In this document: positions 574 to 36,547 of the stretch, piece after piece
Position numbering within the stretch: the first letter of the stretch is position 1
How the letters are laid out: each line of letters starts with the position of its first letter
Source of the DNA: a candidate division WWE3 bacterium
GTDB taxonomy: Bacteria > Patescibacteriota > WWE3 > UBA101185 > UBA10185
DNA: 64,000 nt
Direction of reading: 5' to 3'
Assembly (NCBI GenBank): GCA_014729135.1
Contig: WJKK01000001.1
Location: 455,599 to 519,598, forward strand
Translations under genes and position numbers: made by a program
Notes under the pieces: generated by a model
Databases searched by the model: none
Told to the model about the DNA's origin: nothing
What the model saw: the letters and a program-made list of their open reading frames with translations, nothing else

Positions 574-632
574 AACTCCATTATAACTCTCAAATACTGA
601 TGGATTATTAAATCTGCTAAAATGACCCCAGA

Positions 633-1433
633 ATGTTAGTTTCAGTAATCATTCCCACTTACAAAAAGGAAAAAACCATTGCAAAAAACATCGAGCGCAT
701 CCACAAGGTCATGCAAGAAACTCGTTGGGACTTTGAACTCATTATTGTAGACGACGGCTCTCCCGATAACACCTTTAAAGAAGCCAAAAAAGTAAAAAAG
801 AATAACGTTTCAATTGTGGGTTATAAGACAAATCGAGGCAAAGGCTATGCTGTTCGCTACGGCATGGCCCGTGCTAAAGGGGATTATGTGGCTTTTATAG
901 ATGACAGCATGGAAATTGATCCCAATGGAATTTCCATGGTTTTAGAGCACATGCAATGGTATGAAGCCGACATTATTGTAGGCAGCAAAAGGCACCCCGC
1001 TTCAAAAACTAATTTTTCATGGATTCGCCGTTTATACAGTTGGGGCTATCACTTAATTACAAAGTTTTTGTTTAGGGTGCCGGTTAAGGACACTCAAGCA
1101 GGTCTAAAGGTTTTTAAGCGTGAGGTTTTAGAACATGTTTTACCGCGTTTGGTGATTAAGCAATTTGCCTTTGATGTGGAGCTTCTGGCGGTTTCTAAGT
1201 ATTTAGGTTTTAGACGAATCTACGAAGCGCCTGTAAGCATCCATTTAAATGAATCCGACTCCACTTTTGATAAGTTTTTGTTTTTAAGTCCGCATATTAG
1301 AAAGATGCTTCTTGATACTTTAGCCGTTTTTTATCGGATGTACTTGTTGCGCTATTATCATCCGGATTCGAAGCAGTTGTGGGAGTACGACGAGGAGTTG
1401 CAGCTGCGAGTTAATACCGGTGAGCTGGAGTAA
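633..1433 (+). CDS. GT2 glycosyltransferase, DPM1/GtrB-like polyprenyl-phosphate hexose synthase
   Basis: N-terminal GT-A signature 'VSVIIPTYKKEKTIAKNI...ELIIVDDGSPDNT', with 'YVAFIDDS' as the DxD-like motif. The ~260 aa length and the C-terminal amphipathic segment match polyprenyl-P sugar synthases. Confidence 0.8.
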   Translation: MLVSVIIPTYKKEKTIAKNIERIHKVMQETRWDFELIIVDDGSPDNTFKEAKKVKKNNVSIVGYKTNRGKGYAVRYGMARAKGDYVAFIDDSMEIDPNGISMVLEHMQWYEADIIVGSKRHPASKTNFSWIRRLYSWGYHLITKFLFRVPVKDTQAGLKVFKREVLEHVLPRLVIKQFAFDVELLAVSKYLGFRRIYEAPVSIHLNESDSTFDKFLFLSPHIRKMLLDTLAVFYRMYLLRYYHPDSKQLWEYDEELQLRVNTGELE

Positions 1434-1479
1434 TTGATTGAGTTGCCGGCGCGTATGTGATTTACAGGGGAGTACGGCA

Positions 1480-1510
1480 CCGGCGAGCGTAGACGTTCTA
1501 CGCCCGCCGG
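1480..1510. other. GC-rich perfect/near-perfect hairpin (CCGGCGAGCGTAGA-cgt-TCTACGCCCGCCGG)
   Basis: 14-bp stem with one mismatch and a 3-nt loop. It sits in a local GC-rich patch (1440-1530) within an otherwise AT-rich genome. No U-tract follows. Confidence 0.45.
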
Positions 1511-1532
1511 CGATAAGTCCTAGTGCTGCCGG

Positions 1533-2942: not shown

Positions 2943-4535
2943 ATGAAAGTTGCCATAGCCTATCCCCCAATAGAAACCAACAAGGGAGTCCCTCTACTAT
3001 CGCAAAACCGCCAGTTTCAATACTTTAATACACCCACCTACATCTATCCCATGGTTCCGGCATATGCAGCTTCCTTGGCACAAAAGCGTGGTCATGAAGT
3101 CATTTGGATGGATGGGATAGCTTCAGAGCAAACTTATGCTCAATGGCTAGAGCAGCTGGATCAAGAAAGTCCCGATGTTTTAGTTATTGAATCTAAGGCC
3201 CCTGTTATTCGAAAGCATTGGGAAATCATCAAAGAAGTTAAGCAAAAGCATCCCAAGATGATAACGATTTTGGTGGGCGATCATGTTACCTATGATCCTA
3301 AAGAGAGCATGGAAAATAGTGTTGTAGATATGATTATTAGAGGAGGGGATTTTGATTTTGTTTTGGCGGATTTATTGGATGCTATTTCTAGTCAAAATAA
3401 AGAGGCAAAGATCCCGGGAGGAGTATGGCTTCGAAAAGACAAATCATTTTTAGAAATTCCCAAGGAGCAAGGCAACTATGACGGCGAATTTTGGATTTCC
3501 GGGCCAATGGAAATGCACCACAACCTTGATAGTTTACCTTTTATTGATCGCGATCTAACTCAATGGAAGCTTTATGCCTATGAAAACGGTAATTTTAAGT
3601 ACAAACCGGGAACTTATGTTTATTCAGGACGTGATTGCTGGTGGGGAAAGTGCACTTTTTGTATTTGGAATCACAGCCTGTTTCCTCAAGGAACTTATCG
3701 GCACTTTTCTCCTCATCGCCTCTTTGATGAAGTTAAGCACCTGGTAGATAACTACAGAGTTCGCGAAATTTTCGATGATGCTGGCACTATGTTTGTGGGA
3801 GAGGATCTTAAGACCTTTTGCCGCCTGCTGATAGATTCCGGTTATAACAAAAAAGTGGTTTACAGCTGTAACATGCGTCTTAAAGCGCTGGACCAAGAGA
3901 CTTATGATCTAATGGGGGACGCAAACTTCCGCTATATTTTGTACGGTTTTGAATCAGGAAATCAGGAGACTTTGGATCGTATTGATAAGGGTCTGCAGGT
4001 AGAGGAAATTGAACAGGGTCTTCGAATGGCTAAAAATGCAGGTTTAGAGCCCCACATTACTATTATGGTAGGGTATCCGTGGGAAACGGAGGAGATGGCC
4101 CGTAACACTATTAATCTGGCTAAGGAGATGTTTAAAAAAGGTCTTGTAGACACAATGCAGGCAACAATCACGGTTCCTTATCCGGGAACTCCTTTGTACA
4201 AGGAGTGTGTGGAAAAGGATCTTTTGTTGGTGGATCCAAAGGATTATGAGAAGTTTGACATGCGGGGTCCTGTTATGAAGGTGCCTTTTGACGAGTCAAA
4301 GCTGCATGATTTAACGCAGGAGCTTTATACGGTTTTTATGACGCCAAAGTTTATTTTGCGAAAGGTTATGTCGATTCGTTCTTGGGATGATATTGCGTTT
4401 TTTATTATGGCAGGGCGAAAGTTAATGGGTCATTTGTTGGATTTTGATCGCAGCCAGGAAGAGGCTGTTAAAGATCACGCCGGTTTATGGAAAAAGGGCC
4501 TACGAAAGCTAATGGGGAAAAAGCAAAAAGCTTAA
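2943..4535 (+). CDS. B12-binding-domain radical SAM protein
   Basis: N-terminal Rossmann-like B12-binding-type region, then a radical-SAM cysteine triad 'DCWWGKCTFC' (Cx4Cx2C). The ~530 aa size matches this family. Confidence 0.8.
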   Translation: MKVAIAYPPIETNKGVPLLSQNRQFQYFNTPTYIYPMVPAYAASLAQKRGHEVIWMDGIASEQTYAQWLEQLDQESPDVLVIESKAPVIRKHWEIIKEVKQKHPKMITILVGDHVTYDPKESMENSVVDMIIRGGDFDFVLADLLDAISSQNKEAKIPGGVWLRKDKSFLEIPKEQGNYDGEFWISGPMEMHHNLDSLPFIDRDLTQWKLYAYENGNFKYKPGTYVYSGRDCWWGKCTFCIWNHSLFPQGTYRHFSPHRLFDEVKHLVDNYRVREIFDDAGTMFVGEDLKTFCRLLIDSGYNKKVVYSCNMRLKALDQETYDLMGDANFRYILYGFESGNQETLDRIDKGLQVEEIEQGLRMAKNAGLEPHITIMVGYPWETEEMARNTINLAKEMFKKGLVDTMQATITVPYPGTPLYKECVEKDLLLVDPKDYEKFDMRGPVMKVPFDESKLHDLTQELYTVFMTPKFILRKVMSIRSWDDIAFFIMAGRKLMGHLLDFDRSQEEAVKDHAGLWKKGLRKLMGKKQKA

Positions 4536-4541: not shown

Positions 4542-5036
4542 GTGTTTTTAAATATGTCTTACCTTCTTTTTACTGAAATCCTTCACTTTTTGGGAGCTTT
4601 GGCTTTATTTTTACTCTTTCTCCGTTTTTACAAGTGGTATATAGCAGGATTTTCCTTTCTATTTGGTTTTCTAATAGATGTAGATCATCTTTTTGATTAC
4701 TTTTATTTTATGAAATTTTTTAATAGGGGCTTTAACTTACGGGATTTTCTTTCAGCACAGTCTGTTACAACCGGAAAAATTTTTATTCCTTTTCATGGAT
4801 GGGAATGGGTTGTCCTACTGCTTCTCTTAGCATTGCTTTTTAGGGCTCTTCTTAACAGTGGAACTTTAAAAAAGGACTTTTGGAAAATTTTGGCTCAGAT
4901 TCTTTTTGTTGCAGGTACTTCTTTATTTACACATATTTTAACGGATTACTTTACTAACGAGGTGGGTTTTGGGGCCTATTCTTTCTTTTGGCGTTGGAGC
5001 AATGGTTTCTATACATCTTTAATCTGTGGAAAGTAA
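4542..5036 (+). CDS. small polytopic membrane protein (possibly DUF457/YdjM-like membrane metal-dependent hydrolase)
   Basis: Four hydrophobic segments and a 'FLIDVDHLFDYF' Asp/His motif. The family assignment is tentative. Confidence 0.45.
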   Translation: MFLNMSYLLFTEILHFLGALALFLLFLRFYKWYIAGFSFLFGFLIDVDHLFDYFYFMKFFNRGFNLRDFLSAQSVTTGKIFIPFHGWEWVVLLLLLALLFRALLNSGTLKKDFWKILAQILFVAGTSLFTHILTDYFTNEVGFGAYSFFWRWSNGFYTSLICGK

Positions 5037-5110: not shown

Positions 5111-6013
5111 ATGAGTGGAAATGAAATAGACTTTATAGGTATTGGAGGGTACCGCTGTGCTACTACCTGGATTTCTCGTTGTTTGCAAGAACATCCCGAT
5201 ATTTTATTTTCTGCTCAGAAATCTCAAAAGGAGCTTCACTTCTTTAATGATCAAATAATTTCCGGGCTTTATTACAAGAAAAACCCACGTTATGCAAAAG
5301 GACTAAAATGGTATTTAAAACAATTTCCTAAAGCAAAACCGGGGAAGTTGCGAGGGGAATATTCCGTTAGTTATCTTCCTGACAAAAAAGCTCCCCAAAG
5401 AATTAAAGAGGCATTCTCGAACGTAAAATTGATAGTTTCTTTAAGGAATCCTGTAGATGTTTTATATTCCGGATTTAAGTATTCTCGAGGCGGCATTTTA
5501 TCTGAGGTGGATGAATTTCCTTCAATTTTTGAGAAGGTCCTAGAGAGCAACGATTATCTGGATTTGGGGTTTTATAGTAACCATTTGAAGCGTTATTTTG
5601 ACTTATTTCCTCGAGAAGATGTATTTATAATTATTTATGAAGAAGATATTTTGGAAAAGCCTGCGGAAACGATACAGAATTTATATCGCTTTTTGGGGGT
5701 TGTGGATGATGTTATTCCTCCCACTCTAGAGCAGAGAATAAATAAGTCTTTCCAGGTAAAAATGCCCTATTTGAAGAAGCTAGGGGAAATTGTTTATACT
5801 TATTTGGGTGATTGGAGGATTCCTGTGCTTAACAAGACTATCTTTCAAACTCGGTTTTTTCGGGATCTCTATTCTTTGATAAATAAAAAAGACTCTGCTA
5901 TAGAGGCGATGCGTCCGGAGGTACGTAGCAAGTTAGAAAAGTTTTATCATAAGGATATATCCAGGCTGGAGAATCTCATAGGGCGTGATCTATCTTGTTG
6001 GAGGTCTGACTAG
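5111..6013 (+). CDS. sulfotransferase-family protein
   Basis: 'IGIGGYRCATTWISRCL' resembles the 5'-phosphosulfate-binding loop (PKxGTTW). 'SLRNPVDVLYSGF' resembles the 3'-phosphate-binding RDP motif. ~300 aa. Confidence 0.6.
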   Translation: MSGNEIDFIGIGGYRCATTWISRCLQEHPDILFSAQKSQKELHFFNDQIISGLYYKKNPRYAKGLKWYLKQFPKAKPGKLRGEYSVSYLPDKKAPQRIKEAFSNVKLIVSLRNPVDVLYSGFKYSRGGILSEVDEFPSIFEKVLESNDYLDLGFYSNHLKRYFDLFPREDVFIIIYEEDILEKPAETIQNLYRFLGVVDDVIPPTLEQRINKSFQVKMPYLKKLGEIVYTYLGDWRIPVLNKTIFQTRFFRDLYSLINKKDSAIEAMRPEVRSKLEKFYHKDISRLENLIGRDLSCWRSD

Positions 6014-7150: not shown

Positions 7151-8173
7151 ATGAAATGGCCAAAAGTAACTATAGTAACCCCCACTTTAAATGCTGCTTC
7201 TGTAATGAAGGAGGAGTTAGAGTCAATAGCTAAACAGGATTATCCTAGAGATAAAATTGAAATTGTTGTTGCTGATGGAGGATCTACAGATAATACAAGG
7301 GAATTAGCTAAAGAATATGGTGCCAGAGTTGTTGATAATCCGTTAAAGACGGGCGAAGCAGGTAAGGCTGTTGGTGTTAGGGCGGCAACCGGGGATTTTA
7401 TTGCACTTATTGATTCGGATAACATTTTGCCCACCAAGAATTGGCTAAAGGAAATGATTAAGCCCTTGTTGGAAAATTCTGAAGCAGTTGGAAGCGAACC
7501 TTGGAAATACACATGGCGTGAAGAAGATAGCTTTATTACTCGTTATAGTGCCTTGATTGGTATGAATGATCCGTTTGTTCACTTTTTGGGTAACTACGAT
7601 CGGATGAACTCACTTACCGGAAAATGGACGGAAGTTCCTCATAAGGAAGAGGACAAAGGTGACTACTTGCTGGTAACCTTAGGCAACCGTGGAGTTCCTA
7701 CAATTGGGGCTAACGGGACGGTTTTTCGTGCTGAGTTCTTAAAACAAAACTTAACGGGAGATTACCTTTTTGACATAGACATTATCGCCAAGGCCATTAA
7801 AGAACAGGGGAGTGTTCAGTTTATAAAGACTAAAAATGGCATTATCCACACTTTTTGTGAAGCTAACATAGGTAAATTTGCTCGAAAGCAGAGAAGGCGC
7901 GTAAGAGATTTCTTGTATCACAAAGGAGTTAAGAAAGACCGCGAGTTTGATTGGGAGACCGGAAGTAACTTGGGAATGGTCAAGTTTTTGCTCTCTTGTG
8001 TAACGGTTGTGCCTTTGGTTGTGCAAGCGGTAAAGGGTTATAGCAAAAAGCCTGATTTAGCATGGCTTTTTCATCCTTTAGCCTGTGAAATTACACTTTG
8101 GGAGTATGGGTGGGGTACAGTTAGGAGTCTTTTCAATCGTAGTGAGTTGAGTAGGGAAGGTTGGGGGCAGTGA
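7151..8173 (+). CDS. GT2 glycosyltransferase
   Basis: 'VTIVTPTLNAASVMKEELESI...KIEIVVADGGSTDNT' and 'IALIDSDN'. Confidence 0.8.
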   Translation: MKWPKVTIVTPTLNAASVMKEELESIAKQDYPRDKIEIVVADGGSTDNTRELAKEYGARVVDNPLKTGEAGKAVGVRAATGDFIALIDSDNILPTKNWLKEMIKPLLENSEAVGSEPWKYTWREEDSFITRYSALIGMNDPFVHFLGNYDRMNSLTGKWTEVPHKEEDKGDYLLVTLGNRGVPTIGANGTVFRAEFLKQNLTGDYLFDIDIIAKAIKEQGSVQFIKTKNGIIHTFCEANIGKFARKQRRRVRDFLYHKGVKKDREFDWETGSNLGMVKFLLSCVTVVPLVVQAVKGYSKKPDLAWLFHPLACEITLWEYGWGTVRSLFNRSELSREGWGQ

Positions 8174-25928: not shown

Positions 25929-25952
25929 CGGAGGGCTTTCTCGGAGGTACTT

Positions 25953-28237: not shown

Positions 28238-28244
28238 GTCTGAA

Positions 28245-31139
28245 ATGAGTTTGGAAATGGTTTTTGCAATTTTAATATTTGTTACTTCGTTGATTCTGAT
28301 TGTTTGGGACAAGAAACTTTCTATTTATATTTTGCTGATTCTATCTGTTCTTTTGCATAAAGAGCTTTTTAGCATTTATCGATGGAATCTGCTGCCGGTG
28401 CGAATTTTCATGTTCGCCTTTTTAGTATGGGCGGTTTACGAATTTACAAACTGGCTTTTTTACAATCGCAACTTTAAGGTGCTGTGGAATTACTTAAGAA
28501 AGCCTTTTATTGTGCTTTTAACAAGTATGTGGCTAATTCGCGGAGTCTCCATTATTTTCACTAAAAATCTATTTAGCAGTGTTACGCTTTTTGGCTTTTT
28601 TACTACAATGGTGGCTTTGGGTGTCTTTTTATATTTTCAACTAAAAGATAAGCCCGAGGAGGTTTTGGATTATCTTAAATTTTATATTCATGTGGTTTTT
28701 GCGCTTTGTTTATTTGCCTATTTACAGGCCTTTTTATATTTGCGCTATGAAATTATTATTGGGGCTTTATGGAATATTCCGGGAAAGTTCCCGCGTTTGG
28801 GGGCAATCTTTTGGGATGTAAATCATTTTGGAGGTTTGTTAGCTGCCTTGTTGCCTGTCTTAGGAGTTTTTATTCTTATTGCTAAATCCTGGAAAAAGCG
28901 TATTTGGTATTCATTTATGTTTTTGTCTATGACAGGTGTTTTGTTCTTGACTAACTCGCGCACTTCCTGGATTTTAGGCTTTGTAGCTTTTGTGGTGTTT
29001 TTAGGAATTCTTTTGTTTAGGCGTTTTGGAACAAAAGGTATTTTAGCTATTATGGCTGTTTTGATGTTAATTTCCTCCTTGGTTTTTGCTGAATACATGG
29101 ATAAGGATAGCCCCTTTCGCAAGCGCGTAAAGGATTTTTTCCACTATCGCATTGATTCTTTTGCTTCTCATATGATGCTTTTGGAGGGTTCTTATGAAAT
29201 TTTTGAGGAATATCCTGTTTTAGGTGGTGGTTATGGCGGCTTTTTTGAACACTTCTCTAAGACGGATGTAGCAGCTCGTTATTTCGGGAGGGACCCCGCT
29301 GCTCTTAACACCCGTGTTCCTGCGCATACAATTTGGGGAGAGGCTATTGCAGAAACCGGAGTCTTAGGCCTTGTATCTTTCGTCTTATTTGTAGGGTTGA
29401 TTTTAACTACGCTTTTATATCTTGCTTTAAATGGAGCTTCAACTGATTCGGTTTTAATTTCAGCAGCTATGTTTTCCGCTGTTCTGGGATGGTTGGTAGC
29501 CGGGACTTTTTATTCTTACAACAGTGAATTTTTCTTTATTGTTTTGTTTTTGTACTTCATTTATGCCGTTTCTGTTCTAGGAGAGGATTATGACGTTAAT
29601 CGCATCCTAGGCTTTTTTGGAAAGTTGGGTAAATTGCCTTTTCTTCTAGTGGGTGTCTCAAGCATTGTTTTAATCTTGTTTAGTTTAGGTAAAAACCATC
29701 TTATCCCTTGGGATGAGGCAATTTATGCCGGTATTGCCAAAAACATGGTTAAAAGTGGAGAGTATTTGATTCAGCAATGGCATAATCTTGATGTTTGGTA
29801 CGAGAAACCTCCTTTGTATATGTGGTTAATGGCAGGATTAATGCGTGTTTTTGGATTTTCTTCTTTGGCTGCACGTTTGCCCTCCGCTTTGTTTGGAGTG
29901 GGTATTGTTTTATCGGTGTATGCTTTTGCTAAGAAGTACTTTGGTAAGGTGGTTGGATTTTTTGCCTCTTTGGTGCTTTTAACAACTGTTCACTTTTTGT
30001 ATTACTCTCGCGCAGCAATGCTGGATGTTACTACGACTTTTTTTATTTCTGTTTCTCTGTTTTTATATTTTTCTGCTCGGAGTCGCTTGCTTTCTGTCGA
30101 AGGTTTAAAAGGCTTGTTAAAAGACATGGGCACTGTTTCGAGCTCTGACAAAAAGCTTAAAGCGCAATTTCCTTTCCGCTGGATTTTTTCCGGAGCTTTT
30201 GTAGGTTTAGCAGTTATGACCAAGGGAGTTGTGGGCTTTCTACCCCTGCCCGTTATGGCGTTGTATGAGCTTTACCTGTTAATTACTAAGCAATCCAATT
30301 TAAGTTGGAAACTTGTTTCTCGTTATGCATTCTTATTTGTAGCTGCTTGCCTAGTATTTTTACCCTGGCATGTTTACATGTATTTCCGCTTTGGCCCCGC
30401 CTTTATACAAAATTACATCGGTTATCACGTTTTAGATCGGGCTATGACCGCTATAGAGGATAAGGGGCGTCCTTTTTGGTGGTATACGGTCGTTTTAAAG
30501 GTAAGTATGCGCATCTGGTTTTTAGTGCTTATTCCGGCTTTGGTTTTTGCTGTTGTACGTGTTTTTAGACGTGATAACCGCATTGTATTTTTAAGCCTCT
30601 GGGCAGTTTTTGTATTTTTGTTTTTCTCTGCAGCCAAATCCAAATTGATCTGGTACATTATGCCTTTGTATCCTGCTTTGGCTTTATTAATTGGAGCCTT
30701 TGTTAAGCAGGCCTTAGATTTTATTTTTTCATTTTCCTTAAAACTTGATACTCCTTTGAATAGATTTCTGGTTTACTTTTTTATTGCTGTAGGAGCTGTT
30801 TTTTACCTGTTTTTAAATAAGGAATTGGTTTATACTTCTGACTTAACAGAGGAGCAGGCGCGTTTGCTGATGTTAAAGGATGAGGTTTATGGAGTGGATG
30901 CTAAGGTTTATGCAGATCGTATAGAGCTGCCTTTAGTTTTGTATTATACGGAGGGTCCCTTTGAGATTGTTGATTTTGGGCCTTTAAAGAGGACTCTAGA
31001 AAGTGCTCCTCTGAATGTAGAGATAGTTTTTATTACCAAGGAGAGTCGTTTTCGCGCTTTTAAAGAGATTCATCCATCTTTAAGGCTGGATATGCAAATT
31101 AACGAATGGGTTTTAGGTTCTCTTCCCGCTAGTCGCTAA
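28245..31139 (+). CDS. 964-aa fusion: O-antigen-ligase/Wzy_C-like polytopic domain + GT39/GT83 (ArnT/PMT)-like GT-C domain
   Basis: The N-terminal half carries 'FLTNSRTSWILGF' and many TM helices. The second half starts with 'IPWDEAIYAGIAKNMVKSGEYLIQQWHNLDVWYEKPPLYMWLMA' (ArnT/PMT first-loop motif), followed by further TM helices. Confidence 0.65.
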   Translation: MSLEMVFAILIFVTSLILIVWDKKLSIYILLILSVLLHKELFSIYRWNLLPVRIFMFAFLVWAVYEFTNWLFYNRNFKVLWNYLRKPFIVLLTSMWLIRGVSIIFTKNLFSSVTLFGFFTTMVALGVFLYFQLKDKPEEVLDYLKFYIHVVFALCLFAYLQAFLYLRYEIIIGALWNIPGKFPRLGAIFWDVNHFGGLLAALLPVLGVFILIAKSWKKRIWYSFMFLSMTGVLFLTNSRTSWILGFVAFVVFLGILLFRRFGTKGILAIMAVLMLISSLVFAEYMDKDSPFRKRVKDFFHYRIDSFASHMMLLEGSYEIFEEYPVLGGGYGGFFEHFSKTDVAARYFGRDPAALNTRVPAHTIWGEAIAETGVLGLVSFVLFVGLILTTLLYLALNGASTDSVLISAAMFSAVLGWLVAGTFYSYNSEFFFIVLFLYFIYAVSVLGEDYDVNRILGFFGKLGKLPFLLVGVSSIVLILFSLGKNHLIPWDEAIYAGIAKNMVKSGEYLIQQWHNLDVWYEKPPLYMWLMAGLMRVFGFSSLAARLPSALFGVGIVLSVYAFAKKYFGKVVGFFASLVLLTTVHFLYYSRAAMLDVTTTFFISVSLFLYFSARSRLLSVEGLKGLLKDMGTVSSSDKKLKAQFPFRWIFSGAFVGLAVMTKGVVGFLPLPVMALYELYLLITKQSNLSWKLVSRYAFLFVAACLVFLPWHVYMYFRFGPAFIQNYIGYHVLDRAMTAIEDKGRPFWWYTVVLKVSMRIWFLVLIPALVFAVVRVFRRDNRIVFLSLWAVFVFLFFSAAKSKLIWYIMPLYPALALLIGAFVKQALDFIFSFSLKLDTPLNRFLVYFFIAVGAVFYLFLNKELVYTSDLTEEQARLLMLKDEVYGVDAKVYADRIELPLVLYYTEGPFEIVDFGPLKRTLESAPLNVEIVFITKESRFRAFKEIHPSLRLDMQINEWVLGSLPASR

Positions 31140-31145
31140 CACTTA

Positions 31146-31170
31146 AGGATGATCCTTCATCCTTTCTTTC
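31146..31170 (+). terminator. hairpin GGATGA-tcct-TCATCC + TTTCTTTC after the 964-aa gene. Further AAGGAT/ATCCTT inverted repeats lie up to 31290, giving a convergent terminator region.
   Basis: Inverted repeats read directly from the sequence between two convergent genes. Confidence 0.4.
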
Positions 31171-31276
31171 AGAACATTATCACTAAGCTCAAACCGTACT
31201 TTTTAGCAAGGATTATCTTTGTGTCCGAAGGCACTCATCCTTGTTATCGTGGGTTTTGCTGAGGTTGTTTGAAGGA

Positions 31277-32488
31277 TTATCCTTGGATTTTTGGAAGGGT
31301 TTTTAAGGGAGATTCGTTTTTAGCAAATATAAACACAGCTGTTCCCAGGACAGCAACAATTGAGGCTAAAAGCTGTGCCAAAGCCAGCCCTCTTAATTGC
31401 ATTCCAGGTACCAGAAGTAACACACTTAAAATAAAGGTTCCCAGTTTTAACCCGTTAATCGCCAAAATTTTTCCCGTACTTTCCTCAATAAAAAAATAGT
31501 TTTCCATAAAGGAGGCTACAGCTGCTAAAGCTCCTGCAAAAACCAGAATATTTAAAAGATCCAAAGACGCCTCAAATTGGGGTCCAAAAAAATTCGCAAT
31601 AACAAATTTTGACCCAATAACTCCTAAAACGCCCATAACTAAAAGCAGCATGGCAAGTAACGCTGCCTCATCAAAACTATACTTAAGCTCTTGCTTTTTA
31701 CGCTTTGCATTTTTAGGAAGTAGAACCGAAAAGATTGAAAGTGACAGCAAAGCAAAAACTACCGAAACCTTGTTAGCCAATGCAAAAACTCCCACATCTG
31801 AAAACCCCTGAATTATTTTAGCTATAGCATTTGAAAGAGGTGACCATATTTCCGTAATTGTTTGCGACACTCCCGCAGGCCATGCCTCCAGTAAAAGTTT
31901 CCACGTAGATTTATCAATTTTTAGATTTAATTTTTTCAAGGGATTGTCTTTAAGGACAAGCAAAGCGCCTCCAAAAATAGAAAGCCCAAAAATTGCTGTT
32001 GTTAAAGGAACTGTTGGATTTACAATTCCAAAATAAAACAAGGGAGCTGCTAAGGCTTTTATTAAAGCGGGAAGTGTATACAAGAGAACAAGATAAGTGT
32101 ATTTTTCTTCCTTTTGGTAGAAGGCATATAAGGTGTAGTTAAGCGCATAAGCTAGGACACTTCCCAAGAAGATTAGTATTAAAGCCATGGTTGCCAGTTC
32201 AAGAACGTGCAAGGCGGTAACTCCCAAAATGATTGCCCCTATAAAAAGGGGGATTTTGGCAGGAACAAAGGCTTTCTTTTTAGACGGGTTTAGAATGGAG
32301 CCGGCAACAAAAGTGGAGTTGGTTCCAAAGTCGGTTAAGCGCCCTATGACAACGGTTAAGCTAATAAAAAGTGAGTATTTTCCAAAGTCTTCAACCGGAA
32401 GTGAGTTGGCAACTGCCCAAAGATAAATGAAACCGAGAAGGGCGTTAAACATGTTGCCTACAGCAACAAAGGATATCTTTTTTAACAT
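31277..32488 (-). CDS. Wzx-like polysaccharide/oligosaccharide flippase (MOP superfamily)
   Basis: 403 aa with about 12 TM helices. The N-terminus 'FVAVGNMFNALLGFIYLWAVANSLPVEDFGKYSLFISL' is typical of Wzx/PST flippases. Confidence 0.7.
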   Translation of the reverse strand: MLKKISFVAVGNMFNALLGFIYLWAVANSLPVEDFGKYSLFISLTVVIGRLTDFGTNSTFVAGSILNPSKKKAFVPAKIPLFIGAIILGVTALHVLELATMALILIFLGSVLAYALNYTLYAFYQKEEKYTYLVLLYTLPALIKALAAPLFYFGIVNPTVPLTTAIFGLSIFGGALLVLKDNPLKKLNLKIDKSTWKLLLEAWPAGVSQTITEIWSPLSNAIAKIIQGFSDVGVFALANKVSVVFALLSLSIFSVLLPKNAKRKKQELKYSFDEAALLAMLLLVMGVLGVIGSKFVIANFFGPQFEASLDLLNILVFAGALAAVASFMENYFFIEESTGKILAINGLKLGTFILSVLLLVPGMQLRGLALAQLLASIVAVLGTAVFIFAKNESPLKTLPKIQG

Positions 32489-32556
32489 GTGCTCATCTTA
32501 ACACACTGCTCTTGTGTAAGTTGCTTTTTGTTTCGGCGTAACTGTAAGATTAGATC

Positions 32557-33744
32557 ATGTCCAGAGATACTTCCTCGCTACCTTCTAAAAATTCTCCAAA
32601 ACACCTTCGAGATTTAAAAATAGCACTTGTTTTTGATGATTTAATTCAACAGGGAGGTGCGGAAAAGCTCCTTTTAGCTGTGCATGAAATGTGGCCAAAG
32701 GCTCCTGTTTTTACTTCGCTAGCTTCCAAAGAGTGGCAGGAAAAATGCCGCCAAAAAAACATCTCACTTAAAACCTCCTTTATGCAGGAACTGCCCTTTA
32801 AAAAACAACTTAATCGTTTTTATTCTATTTTAGGTTTGCACATGGTTGCTTTTGAGAGTTTTGATCTTTCCAATTATGATGTGATCCTTTCAATTTCCTC
32901 ACGATATGCTCATGGAATTATTACATCTCCAAATACAAAACATATTTGTTACATGAATTCCCCCTCGCGTCAGTTTTGGCAGTCTCGGGAATATTTCAGC
33001 CAAGAAGGTACTCTTATTAAAAAGTTACAGGGTCTTTTATTACCTTTTTTAAATCATGCACGCCTTTGGGATTACACCGCAGCCCAAAGAGTGGATTATT
33101 TCATTGCTAACTCTCCAATACCACATGCACGAATTAAGAAGCTTTACAAAACAGAGTCCGAAATAGTCTTTCCTTTTTTTGATCCTCCCATGGGTATGGA
33201 TGCTCTATCAAATTTAAGCGCGTCAAAAAACAAAGACGACTACTTTCTAGTGCTAACACGCCTTTCAGCATGGAAACGAGTCGATGTAGCAATTAAAGCC
33301 TGCGGTGCTCTAAAGCACTCCCTGAGAATAATAGGGGAAGGTCCTGCAGAAAAGAAACTTCAGAAACTTGGCTCTACATATGAAAATATTGAATTTCTTG
33401 GCTACGTCTCCGAAAAAGGAAAATGGAAACTTTTAAGAAACTGCAAAGCTTTAATAATGACCCAAAAAGAAGACTTTGGAATAACCGCATTAGAAGCAAT
33501 GTATGCGGGCAAACCTGTTATAGCTTATAAAAAAGGAGGGGCTCAAAGCACAGTTCTTCCCCAAAAAACAGGCGAATTCTTTTCGCAACAAACACCTCAA
33601 TCCCTTAGAGAAGTTCTCCAAAAATTTAACCCTCAAGCCTATAAGTCTCAAGACTGTAAAGATCAAGCAAATCGCTTTACAAAAGACAAATTCCAAGAAT
33701 CCCTCCAAGAAGCCGTAAATAAGGTATACTTTAATTTACTATGA
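32557..33744 (+). CDS. GT4 glycosyltransferase
   Basis: 'LKIALVFDDLIQQGGAEKLL' N-domain and 'GITALEAMYAGKPVIAYKKGG'. Confidence 0.75.
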   Translation: MSRDTSSLPSKNSPKHLRDLKIALVFDDLIQQGGAEKLLLAVHEMWPKAPVFTSLASKEWQEKCRQKNISLKTSFMQELPFKKQLNRFYSILGLHMVAFESFDLSNYDVILSISSRYAHGIITSPNTKHICYMNSPSRQFWQSREYFSQEGTLIKKLQGLLLPFLNHARLWDYTAAQRVDYFIANSPIPHARIKKLYKTESEIVFPFFDPPMGMDALSNLSASKNKDDYFLVLTRLSAWKRVDVAIKACGALKHSLRIIGEGPAEKKLQKLGSTYENIEFLGYVSEKGKWKLLRNCKALIMTQKEDFGITALEAMYAGKPVIAYKKGGAQSTVLPQKTGEFFSQQTPQSLREVLQKFNPQAYKSQDCKDQANRFTKDKFQESLQEAVNKVYFNLL

Positions 33745-34382
33745 AATTTTACGACGTGGGTAAACGACTCATGGATTTGATAGGCTCAATTATTGCACTC
33801 ATTCTTTTTTGGCCAATTATGGTCATTACGGCAATTCATATAAAGCGTGTCTCTAAGGATGGCCCGGTTTTAGCCGATATTCCCAAGCGCCAAGGCAAGG
33901 ATGGCAAAAAATTCACCTTTTATAAATTTCGCTCCATGATTCCCAATGCAACGCAATGGCTTTATGATCATCCGGAGTTTCACGAAAAGTATAAAAACAA
34001 TAACTACAAAATAGCAGCTGAGGAAGATCCGCGAATAATTAAAGGGGGGATTTTTATGCGTAAATACAGCATCGATGAGCTTCCTCAATTTTTAAATGTG
34101 CTTAAAGGGGATATGAGTATAGTTGGTCCGCGTGCTTATTATCCGTACGAAATAAAGGAGCAGTTGGAAAAGCATCCCGAGGCTAGACAACACGTAGAAG
34201 CTTTAGCAACAGTGAAGCCGGGAATTACAGGTCCTTGGCAAGTAAGCGGTCGTTCAGAAATTGGTTTTATGGAGCGTGTTAAAATGGACGCTGAATATGC
34301 AAAAAAGCGTTCACTATTGTATGATTTAGGGGTGATCTTAAAAACGCCCTACGTAGTTATTACAAAGAAAGGAGCTGAGTAA
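33741..34382 (+). CDS. small monotopic polyprenyl-phosphate phosphoglycosyl transferase (PglC/WbaP C-terminal type), the initiating enzyme
   Basis: 'KRLMDLIGSIIALILFWPIMV', 'YKFRSM' and 'DELPQFLNVLKGDMSIVGPRA'. Confidence 0.85.
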   Translation: MKFYDVGKRLMDLIGSIIALILFWPIMVITAIHIKRVSKDGPVLADIPKRQGKDGKKFTFYKFRSMIPNATQWLYDHPEFHEKYKNNNYKIAAEEDPRIIKGGIFMRKYSIDELPQFLNVLKGDMSIVGPRAYYPYEIKEQLEKHPEARQHVEALATVKPGITGPWQVSGRSEIGFMERVKMDAEYAKKRSLLYDLGVILKTPYVVITKKGAE

Positions 34383-34391
34383 TCAGTAATC

Positions 34392-36488
34392 ATGGCAGCA
34401 ACTAAATTTTGGAATCCCGGTAAAGGTAATAAGTTAGGACAGAAGTTTTCAGGAAAGGATCGTAAGCGTCAAAAGGCTGAGGGTCTTAAGGATTTATCGG
34501 CGGATGCTTCTACTGAGGCTTCCGGTGACGCAGGTGCTTCTTCGGTTAAGCCTGCGAAAGGTTTTAAAAATATGAAAAAAGGTAAATTTAGTGGAGCAAA
34601 GAATATGAAAAAGGTTAAAAATGGTAAAAAGGTAGGTAAAGCTGCCTTAAAACTTTCAGGTGGAGTAGTGGTTTTGTTGGCAGTTGTGGCACTGGCAGGT
34701 TACTTTTTTGTGGTGCGGCCTGCTACTAAGGTTTTGGCAAAGACTGCTGCGTTAAAGCGAGATGCACAGTTAATTAGCGAAGGCTTTGTTGGGCGGGATT
34801 TGGTTCAAGTGTCCGAGGGTTTAGATAAGATGGAAAATGATATGCACGAACTTGAGAAGGCGCGTGATGAGAATTTAGGTTGGCTTTCTAAGTTTGGTCC
34901 TACTAAGCCTTATTATCAAGACTCTGAAAGTTTCTTTAAAGCGGGGGAGCATTTAATTGCAGCCGGTAGAGAGGCTGTTGTTTTGTCAGAGCCTTTTGCG
35001 GATGCTGTTGGTTTACGCGTTTCTTCTGATGAGGAAGTAGTAGAGCAAAGTTTAATGGATGCTTTTTCCAGCTGGGTTTCGGTTATGCCTAAAATTGCCG
35101 AAGACTCCGATGAGATTATTAGCCAGCTTTCCATGGCCGGTGAGGCGTTAGAACGGGTGGATCCTTCGCGCTATCCTAAAGAGATTCGCGGTATGGAAAT
35201 TCGTTCTAATATTAAGCGTGGGCAATCGGTTTTAACTCAGCTAAATGAAGCTGCTCCCGATGTTAAGAAGGCTTTAACTTTAATTCCGGTTTTGCTAGGT
35301 ACGGAAGGCGAGGAAATCCGTTATATGATTATTATGCAAAACGATAAGGAAATTCGCCCTACAGGAGGTTTCTGGACTAACTATGCTACTTTTAAAGTTA
35401 AAAATGCCCTTTTAACTTCTGATTTTACTTCTAAGGATATGTACAGCATTGACTTGGCCTTAGAATCCATTGACTCCTATTATGACTTTCCCGATGCTCC
35501 TGCGCCTTACACAAAATATCTAAAAGTAGAGCATCTGTTTGCTCGTGACACTAACACCTCCCCCGATTATCCCACCTCTATAGCAAATTTTATGGAGTTT
35601 TATGACATGGGTATGAAGGTAGTTCCTTCTGAAATCAAGCCGGTAAGTGGTGTTTTTGCTATTGATACAAATGTTTTGGCTGAAATTATGGAGATTACCG
35701 GACCTGTTACTGTGAATGGGGTTACTTATGATTCAGACAATGTAGTTTTGGAGCTAGAGAGAATTGCTAGTTTAACTTTAGCCCAGCAGTCCGGTCGTAA
35801 GCGTGTTTTGGGATATTTAATGGAGGCTATGCTTATTAACCTTTTTGAATCTGATAAGAATCTTTGGCCAAAGCTAATTGAAAAAGGTGTGGATTTAGCT
35901 GTTAGAAAGCATGTTTTGGTTTACTTGGATGATTCCGAGGCGCAGGCTTTAGTAGAAAAGTACAATTTGGGAGGCACTATTCGTGAAGATGTTGAAGGGG
36001 ATTATGCCTATGTTGTGCAGACTAATTTGGGAGGGGATAAGACTAACTGGTTTGTTGAGAAAGATGTAACCCACAATTTGAGTCAAGAGGGTAATCGTTG
36101 GGTTAAGACGGTTTCTGTGACCTATTCTTATCCGGAGCCTTCCGGTGAGTATGCTGCTTTTGTTAAGCGTTTTGCGGATTGGACTCGTTTGTATGTTCCT
36201 TCAGGGAGTGAGTTGATTGCTAAAGAAGGCTTTGAGGATGAGTTTGGAGGAGGTTCTGAAAGCGGTAAGGATTACTTTGATGGTTATTTAACGCTTGGTC
36301 CGGGAGAAACAAAGACGGTGACTTTTAAGTATTATCTTCCGGAGGGTGTGATAGTTGAAGGTGCCCCTTATAAGTTTTTGATTCAGAAGCAGCCGGGAAT
36401 TGTTAGCGAAGATCATTTTATTGAGATTGGCGGAGAGACTACGGAGGTTGAGTTGACGAAGGATTTTGAGTTTACAAAAGTTCTCTAA
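34392..36488 (+). CDS. 698-aa type-II membrane-anchored exported protein with a lysine-rich cytoplasmic tail (DUF4012-like?)
   Basis: ~95-aa K/G-rich N-terminus, one TM helix 'VVVLLAVVALAGYFFVV', then a ~590-aa extracytoplasmic domain. The family assignment is tentative. Confidence 0.5.
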   Translation: MAATKFWNPGKGNKLGQKFSGKDRKRQKAEGLKDLSADASTEASGDAGASSVKPAKGFKNMKKGKFSGAKNMKKVKNGKKVGKAALKLSGGVVVLLAVVALAGYFFVVRPATKVLAKTAALKRDAQLISEGFVGRDLVQVSEGLDKMENDMHELEKARDENLGWLSKFGPTKPYYQDSESFFKAGEHLIAAGREAVVLSEPFADAVGLRVSSDEEVVEQSLMDAFSSWVSVMPKIAEDSDEIISQLSMAGEALERVDPSRYPKEIRGMEIRSNIKRGQSVLTQLNEAAPDVKKALTLIPVLLGTEGEEIRYMIIMQNDKEIRPTGGFWTNYATFKVKNALLTSDFTSKDMYSIDLALESIDSYYDFPDAPAPYTKYLKVEHLFARDTNTSPDYPTSIANFMEFYDMGMKVVPSEIKPVSGVFAIDTNVLAEIMEITGPVTVNGVTYDSDNVVLELERIASLTLAQQSGRKRVLGYLMEAMLINLFESDKNLWPKLIEKGVDLAVRKHVLVYLDDSEAQALVEKYNLGGTIREDVEGDYAYVVQTNLGGDKTNWFVEKDVTHNLSQEGNRWVKTVSVTYSYPEPSGEYAAFVKRFADWTRLYVPSGSELIAKEGFEDEFGGGSESGKDYFDGYLTLGPGETKTVTFKYYLPEGVIVEGAPYKFLIQKQPGIVSEDHFIEIGGETTEVELTKDFEFTKVL

Positions 36489-36547
36489 CTTTTTCAGGTT
36501 TTGTTAGGTTCAGAAGCAGTTTACCTCAATAATCTATAATAAGGGAA

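Follow-up and report, generated by a model that had tools for sequence, protein, structure and literature searches.

The many glycosyltransferases of candidate division WWE3 have already been taken as a sign that these bacteria make polysaccharides, glycoproteins or S-layer glycans (Kantor et al. 2013, PMC3812714), and the sulfate-activation genes sat and cysC have been reported from dozens of genomes of CPR and DPANN organisms (He et al. 2021). A literature search returned no account of sulfotransferases or AftD-like enzymes from CPR bacteria, in agreement with an initial annotation that called such a locus uncharacterised in bacteria of this kind. Here, we report a 36-kb island, found in a 64-kb window (the whole stretch of DNA analysed) of the chromosome of a tiny-genome WWE3 (CPR) bacterium. 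Its probable role is to make a glycan of the cell surface that carries methyl and possibly sulfate groups, with part of the assembly outside the membrane.

Genes were assigned by profile searches against Pfam and NCBIfam (gathering scores or cut-offs), and transmembrane (TM) helices were predicted by hydropathy scan. Positions 633 to 36488 of the window hold a near-continuous run of 29 genes, almost all co-directional, at least 25 of which are glycan-related; such a back-to-back series lies far beyond chance, and the island proposed initially is real. All but one gene (28/29) are on the + strand, the exception being that for a Wzx flippase (31277-32488), and junctions are mostly short or overlapping, apart from two gaps of ~440 and ~560 bp. 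The left edge may lie beyond the window start. Promoter and terminator scans performed no better than shuffled sequence and do not set operon boundaries. Pfam assigned 14 glycosyltransferases (sixteen had been counted initially), eight of them GT2 (gene starts 633, 1869, 7151, 8161, 9775, 17538, 19190, and 23241) and six GT4 (Glycos_transf_1; 6016, 10881, 24729, 25953, 27095, and 32557), together with the three expected SAM methyltransferases (9180, 18520, and 20130). Within the island, no nucleotide-sugar synthesis genes were found, nor did Pfam searches find a chain-length regulator (PCP/Wzz). The island is flanked by genes for PBPs, MraZ, RsmH, and an LCP ligase.

We consider the island best explained, with fair confidence, as a two-block envelope-glycan super-locus of a monoderm bacterium, working by the steps proposed below. 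What is observed is the family or fold to which each enzyme belongs, the gene order, and the recurrence of modules in other genomes; substrates, step order, the number of polymers (one or two), the acceptor, and actual sulfation are what we infer.

Block B (~20850 to 36490) would encode a lipid-linked (Und-PP) oligosaccharide pathway. The chain would be initiated on polyprenyl phosphate at the cytoplasmic face by a small monotopic PglC-type polyprenyl-phosphate hexose-1-phosphate transferase (33741-34382, + strand; Bac_transf, 187.3 bits), a 213-aa protein with one N-terminal hydrophobic helix that matches the EPS_sugtrans, WbaP, and WcaJ models only over its C-terminal catalytic domain. Lengthening would fall to soluble GT4 and GT2 enzymes. 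The block holds a GT2 (23241-24167, +; Glycos_transf_2, 76.3 bits; 63 to 74% identity to syntenic genes in assemblies L006 and L007), three consecutive GT4 genes (24729-25928, 25953-27098, and 27095-28237, +; Pfam, the first match being weaker at 38.8 bits) that are collinear in both assemblies at 59 to 70% identity, and a further GT4 (32557-33744, +; Glycos_transf_1, 98.5 bits). The chain would then be flipped by Wzx (31277-32488, −; Polysacc_synt, 49.3 bits against a cut-off of 28.2; ~10 TM helices), which has an equivalent position and strand in L007, and polymerised or transferred by the Wzy_C half of a 964-aa fusion protein (28245-31139, +; ~22 TM helices). Outside the membrane, the fused PMT_2 domain and a 496-aa GT39-like enzyme (21730-23220, +) may attach sugars from polyprenyl-monophosphate donors. 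The phosphoglycosyltransferase, Wzx, and Wzy_C all match profiles, bearing out the Wzx-type toolkit first annotated, and the ligase::GT39 fusion is Wzy_C::PMT_2 by Pfam, with Wzy_C in the N half (51.4 bits, residues 225 to 380) and a PMT_2/ArnT-like GT-C in the C half (PMT_2, 61 bits; PMT, 45 bits; ArnT 5ezm, 65 bits, residues 467 to 819; NCBIfam ArnT, 91.7 bits). The fusion also occurs in L007 (65% identity). The last gene before RecO encodes a 698-aa DUF4012 protein (34392-36488, +; 65.8 bits) with one N-terminal TM helix and no NCBIfam match. Upstream of the GT39-like gene, in a conserved position, lies a gene for a 269-aa protein (20853-21662, +; 30% identical to its syntenic counterpart in L007) with no family match in Pfam or NCBIfam. 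This gene is anomalously GC rich (55%, against 39% for the island), as is its L007 copy (53% against 38.5%).

The locus, or at least block B, could instead serve mainly protein O-glycosylation and not a peptidoglycan-anchored polysaccharide, with Wzy_C acting as a PglL/WsaB-type O-oligosaccharyltransferase and the PMT_2 and GT39-like enzymes modifying S-layer, pilin, or other surface proteins. Against this, a Wzy_C match in Pfam takes in polymerases, ligases, and O-oligosaccharyltransferases alike, ArnT and ALG-type enzymes (lipid or glycan acceptors) score equal to or above Pmt, the 64-kb window showed no gene for an S-layer or pilin protein, and an LCP-family glycopolymer-to-peptidoglycan ligase lies nearby (43564-44667, −; LytR_cpsA_psr, 113 bits; TIGR00350, 95.4 bits against a cut-off of 62.3). 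We hold mainly protein O-glycosylation possible, though doubtful. The LCP gene had been noted initially; it is outside the island, 7 kb off on the opposite strand, and adjoins the mraZ/rsmH/PBP cluster, and its product may be tied to the island glycan. In the two-block reading that we prefer, the glycan, or glycans, would carry methyl groups and, given a supply of PAPS, sulfate, and would be destined for peptidoglycan via this ligase, for surface proteins, or for both.

In block A (633 to ~20800), which varies between genomes, a soluble 266-aa DPM1/GtrB/ArnC-like GT2 (633-1433, +; Glycos_transf_2, 107.8 bits) is a candidate polyprenyl-phosphate sugar synthase that would make the polyprenyl-P-sugar donor. 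The DPM1-like assignment made initially holds, in that the best full-length PDB match is the Pyrococcus furiosus Dol-P-Man synthase 5mlz (60.6 bits, residues 1 to 201), followed by GtrB (5ekp) and ArnC. NCBIfam scores are far below every equivalog cut-off (PgfS, 62.6 bits; PpgS, 51.9 bits), and no TM helix or membrane anchor is predicted. Orthologues in L003 (61% identity) and L012 (65%) adjoin sulfotransferase and GT-C genes, so the gene travels with them elsewhere.

All four GT-C enzymes that had been predicted were confirmed, the fusion by Pfam and the other three, which have no Pfam match of their own, through homologues, profiles, and structure. Two AftD-family enzymes in block A would consume polyprenyl-P-sugar donors extracytoplasmically. 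The larger (12139-15663, +; 1,174 aa) has an N-terminal membrane domain (~7 TM helices), a large extracytoplasmic domain, and one C-terminal TM helix; PF11847 is found in 11 of 18 non-self homologues (self hit P0248 left out), the family profile retrieves Mycobacterium abscessus AftD (6w98 and 6wbx; E value, 3.4e-13), and the long open reading frame is supported by a 1,174-aa homologue at 56% identity. The smaller (15994-17541, +; 515 aa) is a short relative of the AftD-like family (hhalign probability, 96.9%; E value, 1.7e-10; 432 columns); none of the 42 members of its own family has a Pfam match, and the top 18 Foldseek hits of its AF2 model (pLDDT, 93) are all GT-C (STT3, AftD, AftA, PglB, and ALG9). 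The third (21730-23220), the 496-aa enzyme of block B, is GT39/GT83-like (PMT_2/ArnT-like) and conserved across WWE3. Between the AftD-family genes, a 121-aa protein with four TM helices (15635-16000, +) has no Pfam match and is kept downstream of AftD-like genes, its L008 homologue directly following one (45 bits); speculatively, it might be a lipid-linked sugar flippase or an accessory subunit.

Further GT2 and GT4 enzymes would also act in block A. These include a GT2 with a C-terminal membrane segment (1869-2894, +; Glycos_transf_2, 53 bits; Glyco_trans_2_3, 44.5 bits; a single strong TM peak near residue 265), 55% identical to its syntenic counterpart in L012 and 67% identical to L088; a GT4 (6016-7119, +; Glycos_transf_1, 102.6 bits); a GT2 (7151-8173, +; Glycos_transf_2, 80.4 bits; 66% identical to its syntenic counterpart in L012); and a GT4 kept directly upstream of the AftD-like gene (10881-12077, +; Glycos_transf_1, 79.9 bits; 45% identity to the L012 gene at the equivalent position). 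A 164-aa membrane protein (4542-5036, +; ~3 TM helices) had no Pfam or NCBIfam match even at an E value of ≤1. Two of the three methyltransferases, all confirmed by profiles, belong to a duplicated GT2-methyltransferase-GT2 module (Pfam and TM scan), present at 8161-10809 (+; GT2 8161-9195, SAM methyltransferase 9180-9881, and GT2 9775-10809) and at 17538-20149 (+; GT2 17538-18530, SAM methyltransferase 18520-19188, and GT2 19190-20149). Gene by gene, the copies share 42, 56, and 43% identity, and the last GT2 of each has two C-terminal TM helices, with that at 19190-20149 showing a weak likeness to ArnC (36 bits). The third methyltransferase (20130-20774, +; 67.5 bits) is Methyltransf_23/MetW-like. 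With a PAPS-type sulfotransferase and a B12 radical-SAM enzyme, these three would form the cytoplasmic tailoring set of block A; the scan predicted no TM helix in any of them, which fits tailoring at the cytoplasmic face.

Both of the more unusual tailoring calls passed profile searches. The sulfotransferase (5111-6013, +) has a PAPS-dependent, carbohydrate-sulfotransferase-like fold (Sulfotransfer_1, 61.5 bits against a cut-off of 22; Sulfotransfer_3, 39.9 bits), is predicted to be cytoplasmic, and in the PDB matches 3rnl over its full length (94 bits), then heparan-sulfate 3-OST and NDST. It has 736 homologues (best, 45% identity), and comparison within the family shows that PAPS-binding and catalytic motifs are kept (R/K15, T18-T19, E83, R112, P114, and S120), with E83, R112, P114, and S120 invariant in the family. 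E83 corresponds in the alignment to the Glu in VEKTP of 3-OST, the catalytic base of that enzyme. The 5'-PSB loop reads RCATTW, in which R and A stand where most of the family has K and G. The radical-SAM enzyme (2943-4535, +) is of the B12-binding class (class B), with Radical_SAM (68 bits) and B12-binding (38.8 bits) matches both above gathering scores, and has 64% identity to L012 and 85% to L088. Its earlier labelling as a probable C-methyltransferase was a guess, given a best NCBIfam score of 161 bits (HpnJ) against a cut-off of 577.6 and a cluster motif (CWWGKCTFC) of Cx4Cx2C spacing, common to L012 and L010.

Tailoring might differ from what was proposed initially, with the sulfotransferase inactive, or idle for want of PAPS, or the radical-SAM enzyme not a C-methyltransferase, leaving an ordinary methylated, unsulfated polysaccharide. 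The PAPS genes sat, cysC, and cysDN are absent from the 64-kb window, the loop departs from the majority residues, and the island of a close relative has no sulfotransferase gene; the radical-SAM enzyme falls far below every equivalog cut-off, its cluster spacing is non-canonical, and its nearest PDB entries are 9ccb and the non-methylating AprD4, a match to TokK being confined to the B12 domain. However, about one-third of the family has R and A at these loop positions, all other catalytic and PAP-binding residues are invariant, and the sulfotransferase open reading frame is intact and inside the operon. PAPS-synthesis genes also lie in cis at 7 of 80 homologous sulfotransferase loci (four CPR labelled, two DPANN labelled, and one Saprospiraceae); in the CPR- and DPANN-labelled loci an APS kinase, ATP sulfurylase, or CysN::CysC gene is within ~5 kb, and in L023, L056, and L069 such a gene directly adjoins the sulfotransferase. 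This shows that small-genome organisms use the family together with PAPS, and sat and cysC are reported widely in CPR and DPANN genomes, as cited above. We consider this reading as a whole rather unlikely.

The initial annotation had read the whole 36 kb as one integrated pathway to a single mannose-containing, methylated and possibly sulfated glycopolymer, made by a rare combination of enzymes. The genes are indeed contiguous, co-directional, and tightly packed, the initiating phosphoglycosyltransferase, Wzx, and the Wzy_C domain each occur only once, and the DPM1-like GT2 stands alongside four GT-C enzymes. Against this, mannose rests on a gene outside the island (46790-48211, +; four PGM_PMM domains) that encodes a hexose-phosphate mutase of the PGM/PMM/GlmM superfamily and not specifically a phosphomannomutase, its NCBIfam matches (archaeal GlmM, 298 bits; PgmG, 287 bits; PMM/PGM, 249 bits) all being below their own cut-offs. 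The halves also differ in distribution. The right part (21730-32488) is collinear at 60 to 74% identity in L006 and L007, probably WWE3 relatives, with both the Wzy_C::PMT_2 fusion and the inverted Wzx retained; L007 and L006/L088 conserve this part but lack the sulfotransferase. The left half varies between genomes, and its core (DPM1-like GT2, GT2, radical SAM, GT2, sulfotransferase, GT4, and AftD-like) recurs in other Patescibacteria. One Patescibacteria MAG (L012) has the order GT2, GT2, radical SAM, an intervening gene, GT2, sulfotransferase, then, further on, GT4, AftD-like, and small TM protein (26 to 66% identity); no right-half genes were seen in the 20.9 kb of this locus examined. 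A single integrated pathway accordingly seems quite unlikely. The relative L088/L006 retains the GT-C genes and, at 85% identity, the radical-SAM gene but has no sulfotransferase, so the tailoring set is interchangeable and not an obligate unit.

Judged by sequence comparison, the island is a mosaic of two evolutionary blocks. Pieces of the left-half core are found in L003, L008, L009, L010, and L018, and related enzyme combinations occur in L010, L003, L001, and L023, so the tailoring chemistry described as rare together recurs, in L012 in the same gene order. Each enzyme type in the island is familiar, and its gene combinations recur in related bacteria.

The envelope glycan island of this WWE3 genome (window positions 633 to 36488) comprises 29 genes, with a left half running from 633 to about 20800 and a right half from about 20850 to 36490. 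It lies on a contig of 864,248 bp, and the genome measures ~0.9 Mb or more. All its enzymes are from known families, and it is not a new kind of system, its overall logic being that of known glycopolymer pathways. What is unusual is the presence of AftD-family enzymes outside the Actinobacteria, a Wzy_C::PMT_2 fusion, a B12 radical-SAM enzyme with a Cx4Cx2C motif, and a carbohydrate-type sulfotransferase in a genome of this size. Pfam searches agreed with nearly all domain calls of the initial annotation, including three SAM methyltransferases (9180, 18520 and 20130); glycosyltransferases numbered 14 (8 GT2 and 6 GT4) rather than the sixteen first counted.

The final island gene encodes a DUF4012 protein (34392-36488), and core chromosomal genes lie to its right: RecO, a class II aminoacyl-tRNA synthetase, MraZ, RsmH, a PBP2-type transpeptidase, an LCP ligase, a two-component system, a PGM/PMM-family mutase, a PEP-utilising enzyme, enolase, LexA, UvrB and PBP1A. 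GC content was ~39 to 40% throughout the window, and scans of its 64 kb found no tRNA genes or Rfam families. Promoter and terminator scans (20 to 37 kb) performed no better than on shuffled sequence (22 versus 32 expected; 22 versus 19) and were thus uninformative on operon boundaries. In the same flank, an arginyl-tRNA synthetase open reading frame (ORF; 52285-53166, plus strand) of only 293 aa spans the final third of the catalytic domain together with the DALR anticodon-binding domain; because the gap to enolase is only 346 bp, the N-terminal half is missing here. Next to it, 53171-54550 (minus strand) fuses a VTT/DedA-type membrane domain to a histidine-phosphatase domain. DedA-family proteins are implicated in undecaprenyl-phosphate recycling, and the fusion could perhaps be relevant to a cell with several lipid-carrier pathways.

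Loci related to the island were sought with one genome per species, using as query a closer set of sulfotransferases than the 34-sequence family alignment described below. Of the 80 loci returned, 15 were labelled Saccharibacteria, WWE3, Patescibacteria or Paceibacteria and 5 Nanoarchaeota, Pacearchaeota or "archaeon"; the other labels included many Chthoniobacterales/Verrucomicrobia and some Proteobacteria and Bacteroidota. A locus from a Patescibacteria metagenome-assembled genome (L012) retains the order of the left half (percentages are identity to the window genes): GT2 (65%), GT2 (55%), radical SAM (64%), an unrelated small gene, GT2 (66%), sulfotransferase (37%), three other genes, GT4 (45%), AftD-like (26%) and a small ORF. 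Parts of this set also occur in five further loci (L003, L008, L009, L010 and L018). The right half (21730-32488), including the Wzy_C::PMT_2 fusion and the inverted Wzx gene, has a collinear counterpart (60 to 74% identity) in each of two related assemblies, L006/L088 and L007, which we take as WWE3 relatives; in L088, the radical-SAM gene (85% identity) is followed by amino-sugar genes in place of the sulfotransferase. The different conservation of the two halves makes the island a mosaic, in which a replaceable tailoring and glycosyltransferase cassette sits among conserved anchor genes, as in other surface-polysaccharide loci. The tailoring enzymes had been described as rare together, which the recurrence of the gene set in L012 and related loci contradicts; that recurrence strengthens the view that the genes work together.

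The island carries two copies (8161-10809 and 17538-20149) of a module of three genes: GT2, SAM methyltransferase and a second GT2, which ends in two C-terminal transmembrane helices. Gene by gene, the copies share 42, 56 and 43% protein identity (BLASTP among island proteins), and they reflect either an old duplication or a double acquisition. Four ORFs (4542-5036, 15635-16000, 20853-21662 and 24378-24611) had no Pfam match at E ≤ 1. One of them, 20853-21662 (plus strand, 269 aa), has a GC content of 55% against 39% for the island and was considered as a spurious ORF or as foreign DNA; the former was rejected on a syntenic homologue in L007 (2125-2907, 30% identity; GC content, 53% against 38.5% for its locus), both genes lying directly upstream of the conserved GT39-like gene. 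The intergenic region 1433-1869 (436 bp) has a GC-rich hairpin-like segment (~1445-1515) followed by ~300 nt of T/C-rich low-complexity sequence, and its ORFs all look spurious. The gap at 24167-24729 (562 bp) holds a single ORF of 77 aa; at the equivalent position, the related assemblies carry a small ORF and a PIN-domain toxin gene (L006, 12471-13141; L007, 7116-7720), and L006 has a HepT/MNT pair just upstream of its GT39-like gene. Module junctions thus seem to be where toxin-antitoxin cassettes insert.

The sulfotransferase (5111-6013; NCBI MBD3366164, publicly annotated as "hypothetical") was confirmed by profile (PF00685, 61.5 bits, cut-off 22; PF13469, 39.9 bits, cut-off 27). Its best solved relative is a bacterial sulfotransferase (PDB 3rnl; 94 bits, full length), followed by heparan-sulfate 3-O- and N-sulfotransferases, and 736 homologues were found at E ≤ 1e-5, none above 45% identity. 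Motifs were checked in an alignment of 34 family sequences. The 5'-phosphosulfate loop of the family reads K/R-x-G/A-T/S-T, and residues 15 to 19 of the window enzyme are R-C-A-T-T; at position 15, 23 sequences have K and 11 have R, and at position 17, 22 have G and 12 have A, so that the R and A variants are each common to about a third of the family. R112, P114 and S120 (the 3'-phosphate-binding motif R...S) and E83 are invariant in all 34. E83 aligns (HMMER) to the Glu of the 3-OST-1 "VEKTP" segment, which we take to be the catalytic base. No transmembrane helix was predicted, consistent with cytoplasmic, PAPS-dependent action. The enzyme thus shares with the PAPS-dependent carbohydrate sulfotransferases (3-OST, NDST, 3rnl and NodH) the fold, both the 5'-phosphosulfate-binding and 3'-phosphate-binding motifs, and the invariant Glu; it differs from the characterised enzymes in being less than 30% identical to any of them and in having no PAPS genes in the window.

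Using Sat and CysC of a Saccharibacteria-labelled locus (L023) as tblastn queries, no ATP sulfurylase or APS kinase was found in the 64-kb window (E > 1). Related loci place a homologous sulfotransferase within ~5 kb of PAPS-synthesis genes, as direct neighbours in L023 and in two DPANN-labelled loci (L056 and L069). In L023 (4282-16148), APS kinase (201 bits) and ATP sulfurylase (291 bits) lie on either side of the sulfotransferase; its wider neighbourhood holds another sulfotransferase, two B12 radical-SAM genes, GT4 genes, a methyltransferase and a deacetylase. Other Saccharibacteria-labelled loci carry CysN::CysC fusions (L025, 2654-4522; L038, 4637-6442) or CysC (L020, 9817-10362). Directly adjoining the sulfotransferase in the DPANN-labelled loci (L056, 2847-5063, minus strand; L069, 7707-9986, minus strand) is an unusual fusion of ~740 to 760 aa, pyruvate-kinase barrel::PUA_2::ATP sulfurylase. 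As in NodH/NodPQ systems, the related CPR loci thus place the sulfotransferase gene beside CysN::CysC (NodQ-like) or Sat and CysC. The genes sat, cysC and cysN were reported in dozens of CPR and DPANN genomes and interpreted as sulfate reduction (He et al. 2021). Because the homologous sulfotransferase is linked to PAPS-synthesis genes in glycan loci, our data suggest that the sat and cysC genes so reported provide PAPS for glycan sulfation, not for sulfur assimilation or sulfate reduction. A Ryanbacteria-type CPR glycan locus (L001/L002) also carries a homologous sulfotransferase, with Wzx, a sulfatase-fold protein, a PMT_2 GT-C enzyme, a carbamoyltransferase, a GT2-methyltransferase fusion, several methyltransferases and deoxy-sugar enzymes.

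The second tailoring enzyme (2943-4535; NCBI MBD3366162) has, as initially annotated, a B12-binding domain (PF02310, 38.8 bits, cut-off 32.1; residues 40-134) and a radical-SAM core (PF04055, 68 bits, cut-off 29.5; residues 229-392). It lacks the canonical CxxxCxxC [4Fe-4S] motif, the sole candidate being CWWGKCTFC (Cx4Cx2C). This spacing, in CWWGKCTFC or variants of it, is common to the window enzyme, L012 (6545-8176) and L010 (10846-12303), the L023 radical-SAM genes being Cx3Cx2C; it is a spacing variant that retains the three cysteines. The protein had been proposed as a probable C-methyltransferase. It falls far below every curated NCBIfam subfamily cut-off and does not group with a characterised methyltransferase subfamily (such as TokK, GenK, Fom3 or HpnR): HpnJ scores best (161 versus a cut-off of 577.6), with HpnR at 69 versus 650 and PhpK at 77 versus 600, and the TokK match is confined to the B12 domain. 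Among solved structures it is closest to AprD4, which does not methylate, and to an uncharacterised radical-SAM protein. With these scores, the AprD4-like similarity and the Cx4Cx2C motif, C-methylation is only one possible activity.

An initiating phosphoglycosyltransferase, a Wzx flippase and a Wzy_C-family protein, the toolkit of a Wzx/Wzy-dependent pathway, were confirmed, each profile scoring above its cut-off (Bac_transf, 187 bits; Polysacc_synt, 49; Wzy_C, 51). The Wzx-type Polysacc_synt protein (31277-32488) is on the minus strand, and Wzy_C is fused to PMT_2/PMT in 28245-31139 (Pfam; NCBI MBD3366185). WbaP and WcaJ models match 33741-34382 (213 aa) in their catalytic C-terminal domain only, which makes it a small monotopic phosphoglycosyltransferase of the PglC type. 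No island ORF has the domain of a chain-length regulator (Wzz/PCP). The LCP ligase (43564-44667) was upheld (PF03816, 113 bits; TIGR00350, 95.4 versus a cut-off of 62.3) and may act on the island product. The mutase at 46790-48211 had been called a phosphomannomutase, and the polymer mannose-containing; the mutase scores alike for archaeal GlmM (298, cut-off 439), PgmG (287, cut-off 600) and PMM/PGM (249, cut-off 618), with CpsG at 173 (cut-off 801), and since the first three scores are similar and all lie below their cut-offs, mannose is unsupported.

All four GT-C candidates proposed initially were substantiated through homologue domains, profiles, structural models and a match to ArnT. Taken singly, 12139-15663, 15994-17541 and 21730-23220 had no Pfam or NCBIfam match. 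The family sequence profiles of the 496-aa and 515-aa proteins found nothing among PDB sequences, so that fold-level and profile-profile comparisons were needed for these two families. The 496-aa protein (21730-23220, GT39/GT83-like) has the GT-C membrane fold and 375 homologues, which are spread over many genomes of WWE3 and other Patescibacteria at ~50% identity; PMT_2 (PF13231) does not match the protein itself at E ≤ 0.01, and some of the homologues at ~50% identity carry that domain or are named GT39. Its AlphaFold model (38-sequence input) had a pLDDT of 84 and a pTM of 0.88. S40-E41-D42, directly after TM1 in the first extracytoplasmic loop, is invariant in the 38 sequences and may be catalytic.

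The 1174-aa protein (12139-15663) belongs with AftD. PF11847 (AftD family) was found on 11 of its 18 non-self homologues (the self match, P0248, being left out), and its family profile matches Mycobacterium abscessus AftD (6w98 and 6wbx; E, 3.4e-13). Its architecture is that of AftD, with N-terminal transmembrane peaks at 68-371, ~750 non-membrane residues and a C-terminal helix at 1145. No genes for the DPA pathway (the decaprenyl-P-arabinose donor) were found in the window by Pfam. The public annotation of this gene (P0248) is 770 aa long; the window ORF is intact at 1174 aa and is matched end to end by a homologue of 1174 aa (56% identity), and the deposited gene model is probably truncated at its N terminus. 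The 515-aa protein (15994-17541) has relatives with no Pfam family (0 of 42). It aligns with the AftD-like family (hhalign; probability, 96.9%; E, 1.7e-10), and the top 18 Foldseek matches of its AF2 model (pLDDT, 93) are all GT-C, including AftD (6wbx) and AftA. Two of the four island GT-C enzymes therefore belong to the AftD family, whose study has until now been confined to mycobacteria. The fourth, the C-terminal half of the fusion 28245-31139, matches ArnT (65 bits).

These enzymes would draw on a polyprenyl-P sugar, for which 633-1433 is the candidate synthase (266-aa GT2, no predicted transmembrane helix). Among solved structures, the Pyrococcus Dol-P-Man synthase (5mlz; 60.6 bits, residues 1-201) matches it best over the full length, followed by GtrB and ArnC, and the PpgS model aligned over 3-200 of 226 positions. 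It stayed far below every equivalog cut-off (PgfS, 62.6 versus 500; PpgS, 51.9 versus 370; ArnC, 48.1 versus 529), and chondroitin synthase scores equal to DPMS over the N-terminal half. The strongest support for a polyprenyl-P sugar synthase is genomic association: orthologues of 61 to 65% identity share loci with AftD-like or GT39-like genes in L003 and L012 and occur together with the sulfotransferase in L009, L010 and L018. The membrane-anchored GT2s at 9775 and 19190 are weakly similar to ArnC (36 bits over the catalytic domain).

On the observed family and fold membership and synteny of these enzymes, a pathway can be proposed in which substrates, the order of steps, the number of products, the acceptor and sulfation itself are what we infer. 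The phosphoglycosyltransferase would prime polyprenyl phosphate, and cytoplasmic GT4 and GT2 enzymes would build an oligosaccharide, with the methyltransferases, sulfotransferase and radical-SAM enzyme acting in the cytoplasm on it or on sugar precursors. Wzx would flip the oligosaccharide, and the Wzy_C domain would polymerise or transfer it. The DPM1-like GT2 would load sugar onto polyprenyl phosphate, and after flipping, the four GT-C enzymes would use this donor outside the membrane. The final acceptor might be peptidoglycan, through the LCP ligase, or surface proteins, or the two together.

On what CPR envelopes consist of and how they are assembled, published CPR/WWE3 genome papers note a richness in glycosyltransferases and go no further (PMC3812714 and PMC5220378), and the open literature searched held nothing relevant on sulfotransferases or AftD-like enzymes in Patescibacteria/CPR. 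The island now supplies defined components that can be put to the test: four extracytoplasmic GT-C enzymes, an Und-PP pathway, and predicted cytoplasmic methylation and sulfation. Because its modules recur across Patescibacteria and sulfotransferases adjoin PAPS genes in other CPR/DPANN genomes, sulfated surface glycans are suggested to be a repeated investment of organisms with minimal metabolism. A wider reading, which we put forward tentatively and hold to be rather improbable, is that CPR and DPANN share a laterally exchanged surface-glycan toolkit, with a carbohydrate-type sulfotransferase often accompanied by its own PAPS genes, for displaying sulfated, methylated glycans; under the same tentative reading, the CPR version adds DPM1-like synthases, AftD-like GT-C enzymes and B12 radical-SAM enzymes. 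If true, ultra-small episymbionts spend scarce ATP on sulfated, methylated glycans that perhaps help them attach to hosts or evade phages; glycan sulfation, and not sulfur assimilation or "sulfate reduction", is what sat, cysC and cysN serve in such genomes; and the WWE3 island is one full-size example of the toolkit.

Among known systems, mycobacterial arabinogalactan/LAM assembly uses WecA, cytoplasmic glycosyltransferases, Ppm1 or DPA donors, AftA-D, Emb, PimE and the Lcp1 ligase. Like it, the island would combine a cytoplasmic lipid-linked primer with extension outside by several GT-C enzymes using polyprenyl-monophosphate sugars, and it has an AftD-family enzyme in which a C-terminal transmembrane helix follows a large extracytoplasmic domain, a soluble DPM1-like synthase and an LCP ligase nearby. 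Unlike it, the island has a PglC-type phosphoglycosyltransferase as initiator instead of WecA, Wzx and a Wzy_C domain instead of an ABC transporter, and a window without DPA synthesis genes; it belongs to a CPR bacterium whose genome is ~0.9 Mb or larger, and it has in addition a sulfotransferase and a B12 radical-SAM enzyme. The AftD-like proteins are also only ~20 to 30% identical to one another, and the link to mycobacterial AftD needs a family profile. In three-component systems (GtrA/GtrB/Gtr*, streptococcal GacI/J/K/L, and CsbB/GtcA/YfhO of Bacillus/Listeria), the Und-P-sugar formed by a GT2 is exposed through a flippase or small membrane protein and is then the donor from which a GT-C enzyme glycosylates an extracellular polymer. 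The island likewise pairs 633-1433, and perhaps the anchored GT2s (9775 and 19190), with GT-C genes, and a 121-aa four-helix protein (15635-16000) is conserved beside AftD-like genes. It differs in that this protein has no detectable GtrA similarity (Pfam, E ≤ 1), the anchored GT2s resemble ArnC and GtrB weakly, the best DPM1-like candidate lacks a membrane anchor, and there are four GT-C enzymes rather than one. Compared with monoderm Wzx/Wzy capsule, O-antigen and S-layer-glycan loci, the island departs in its fusion of Wzy_C to a PMT_2 GT-C domain and in having no PCP/Wzz or tyrosine-kinase genes, with a DUF4012 protein at the expected co-polymerase position; it shares with them Wzx, a Wzy_C-family protein, an LCP ligase, GT2 and GT4 enzymes and a monotopic phosphoglycosyltransferase, as well as conserved anchor genes between which gene content is hypervariable. 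Its logic is that of mycobacterial arabinogalactan/LAM assembly and GtrABV/GacIJKL-type extracytoplasmic glycosylation, combined with a Wzx/Wzy pathway.
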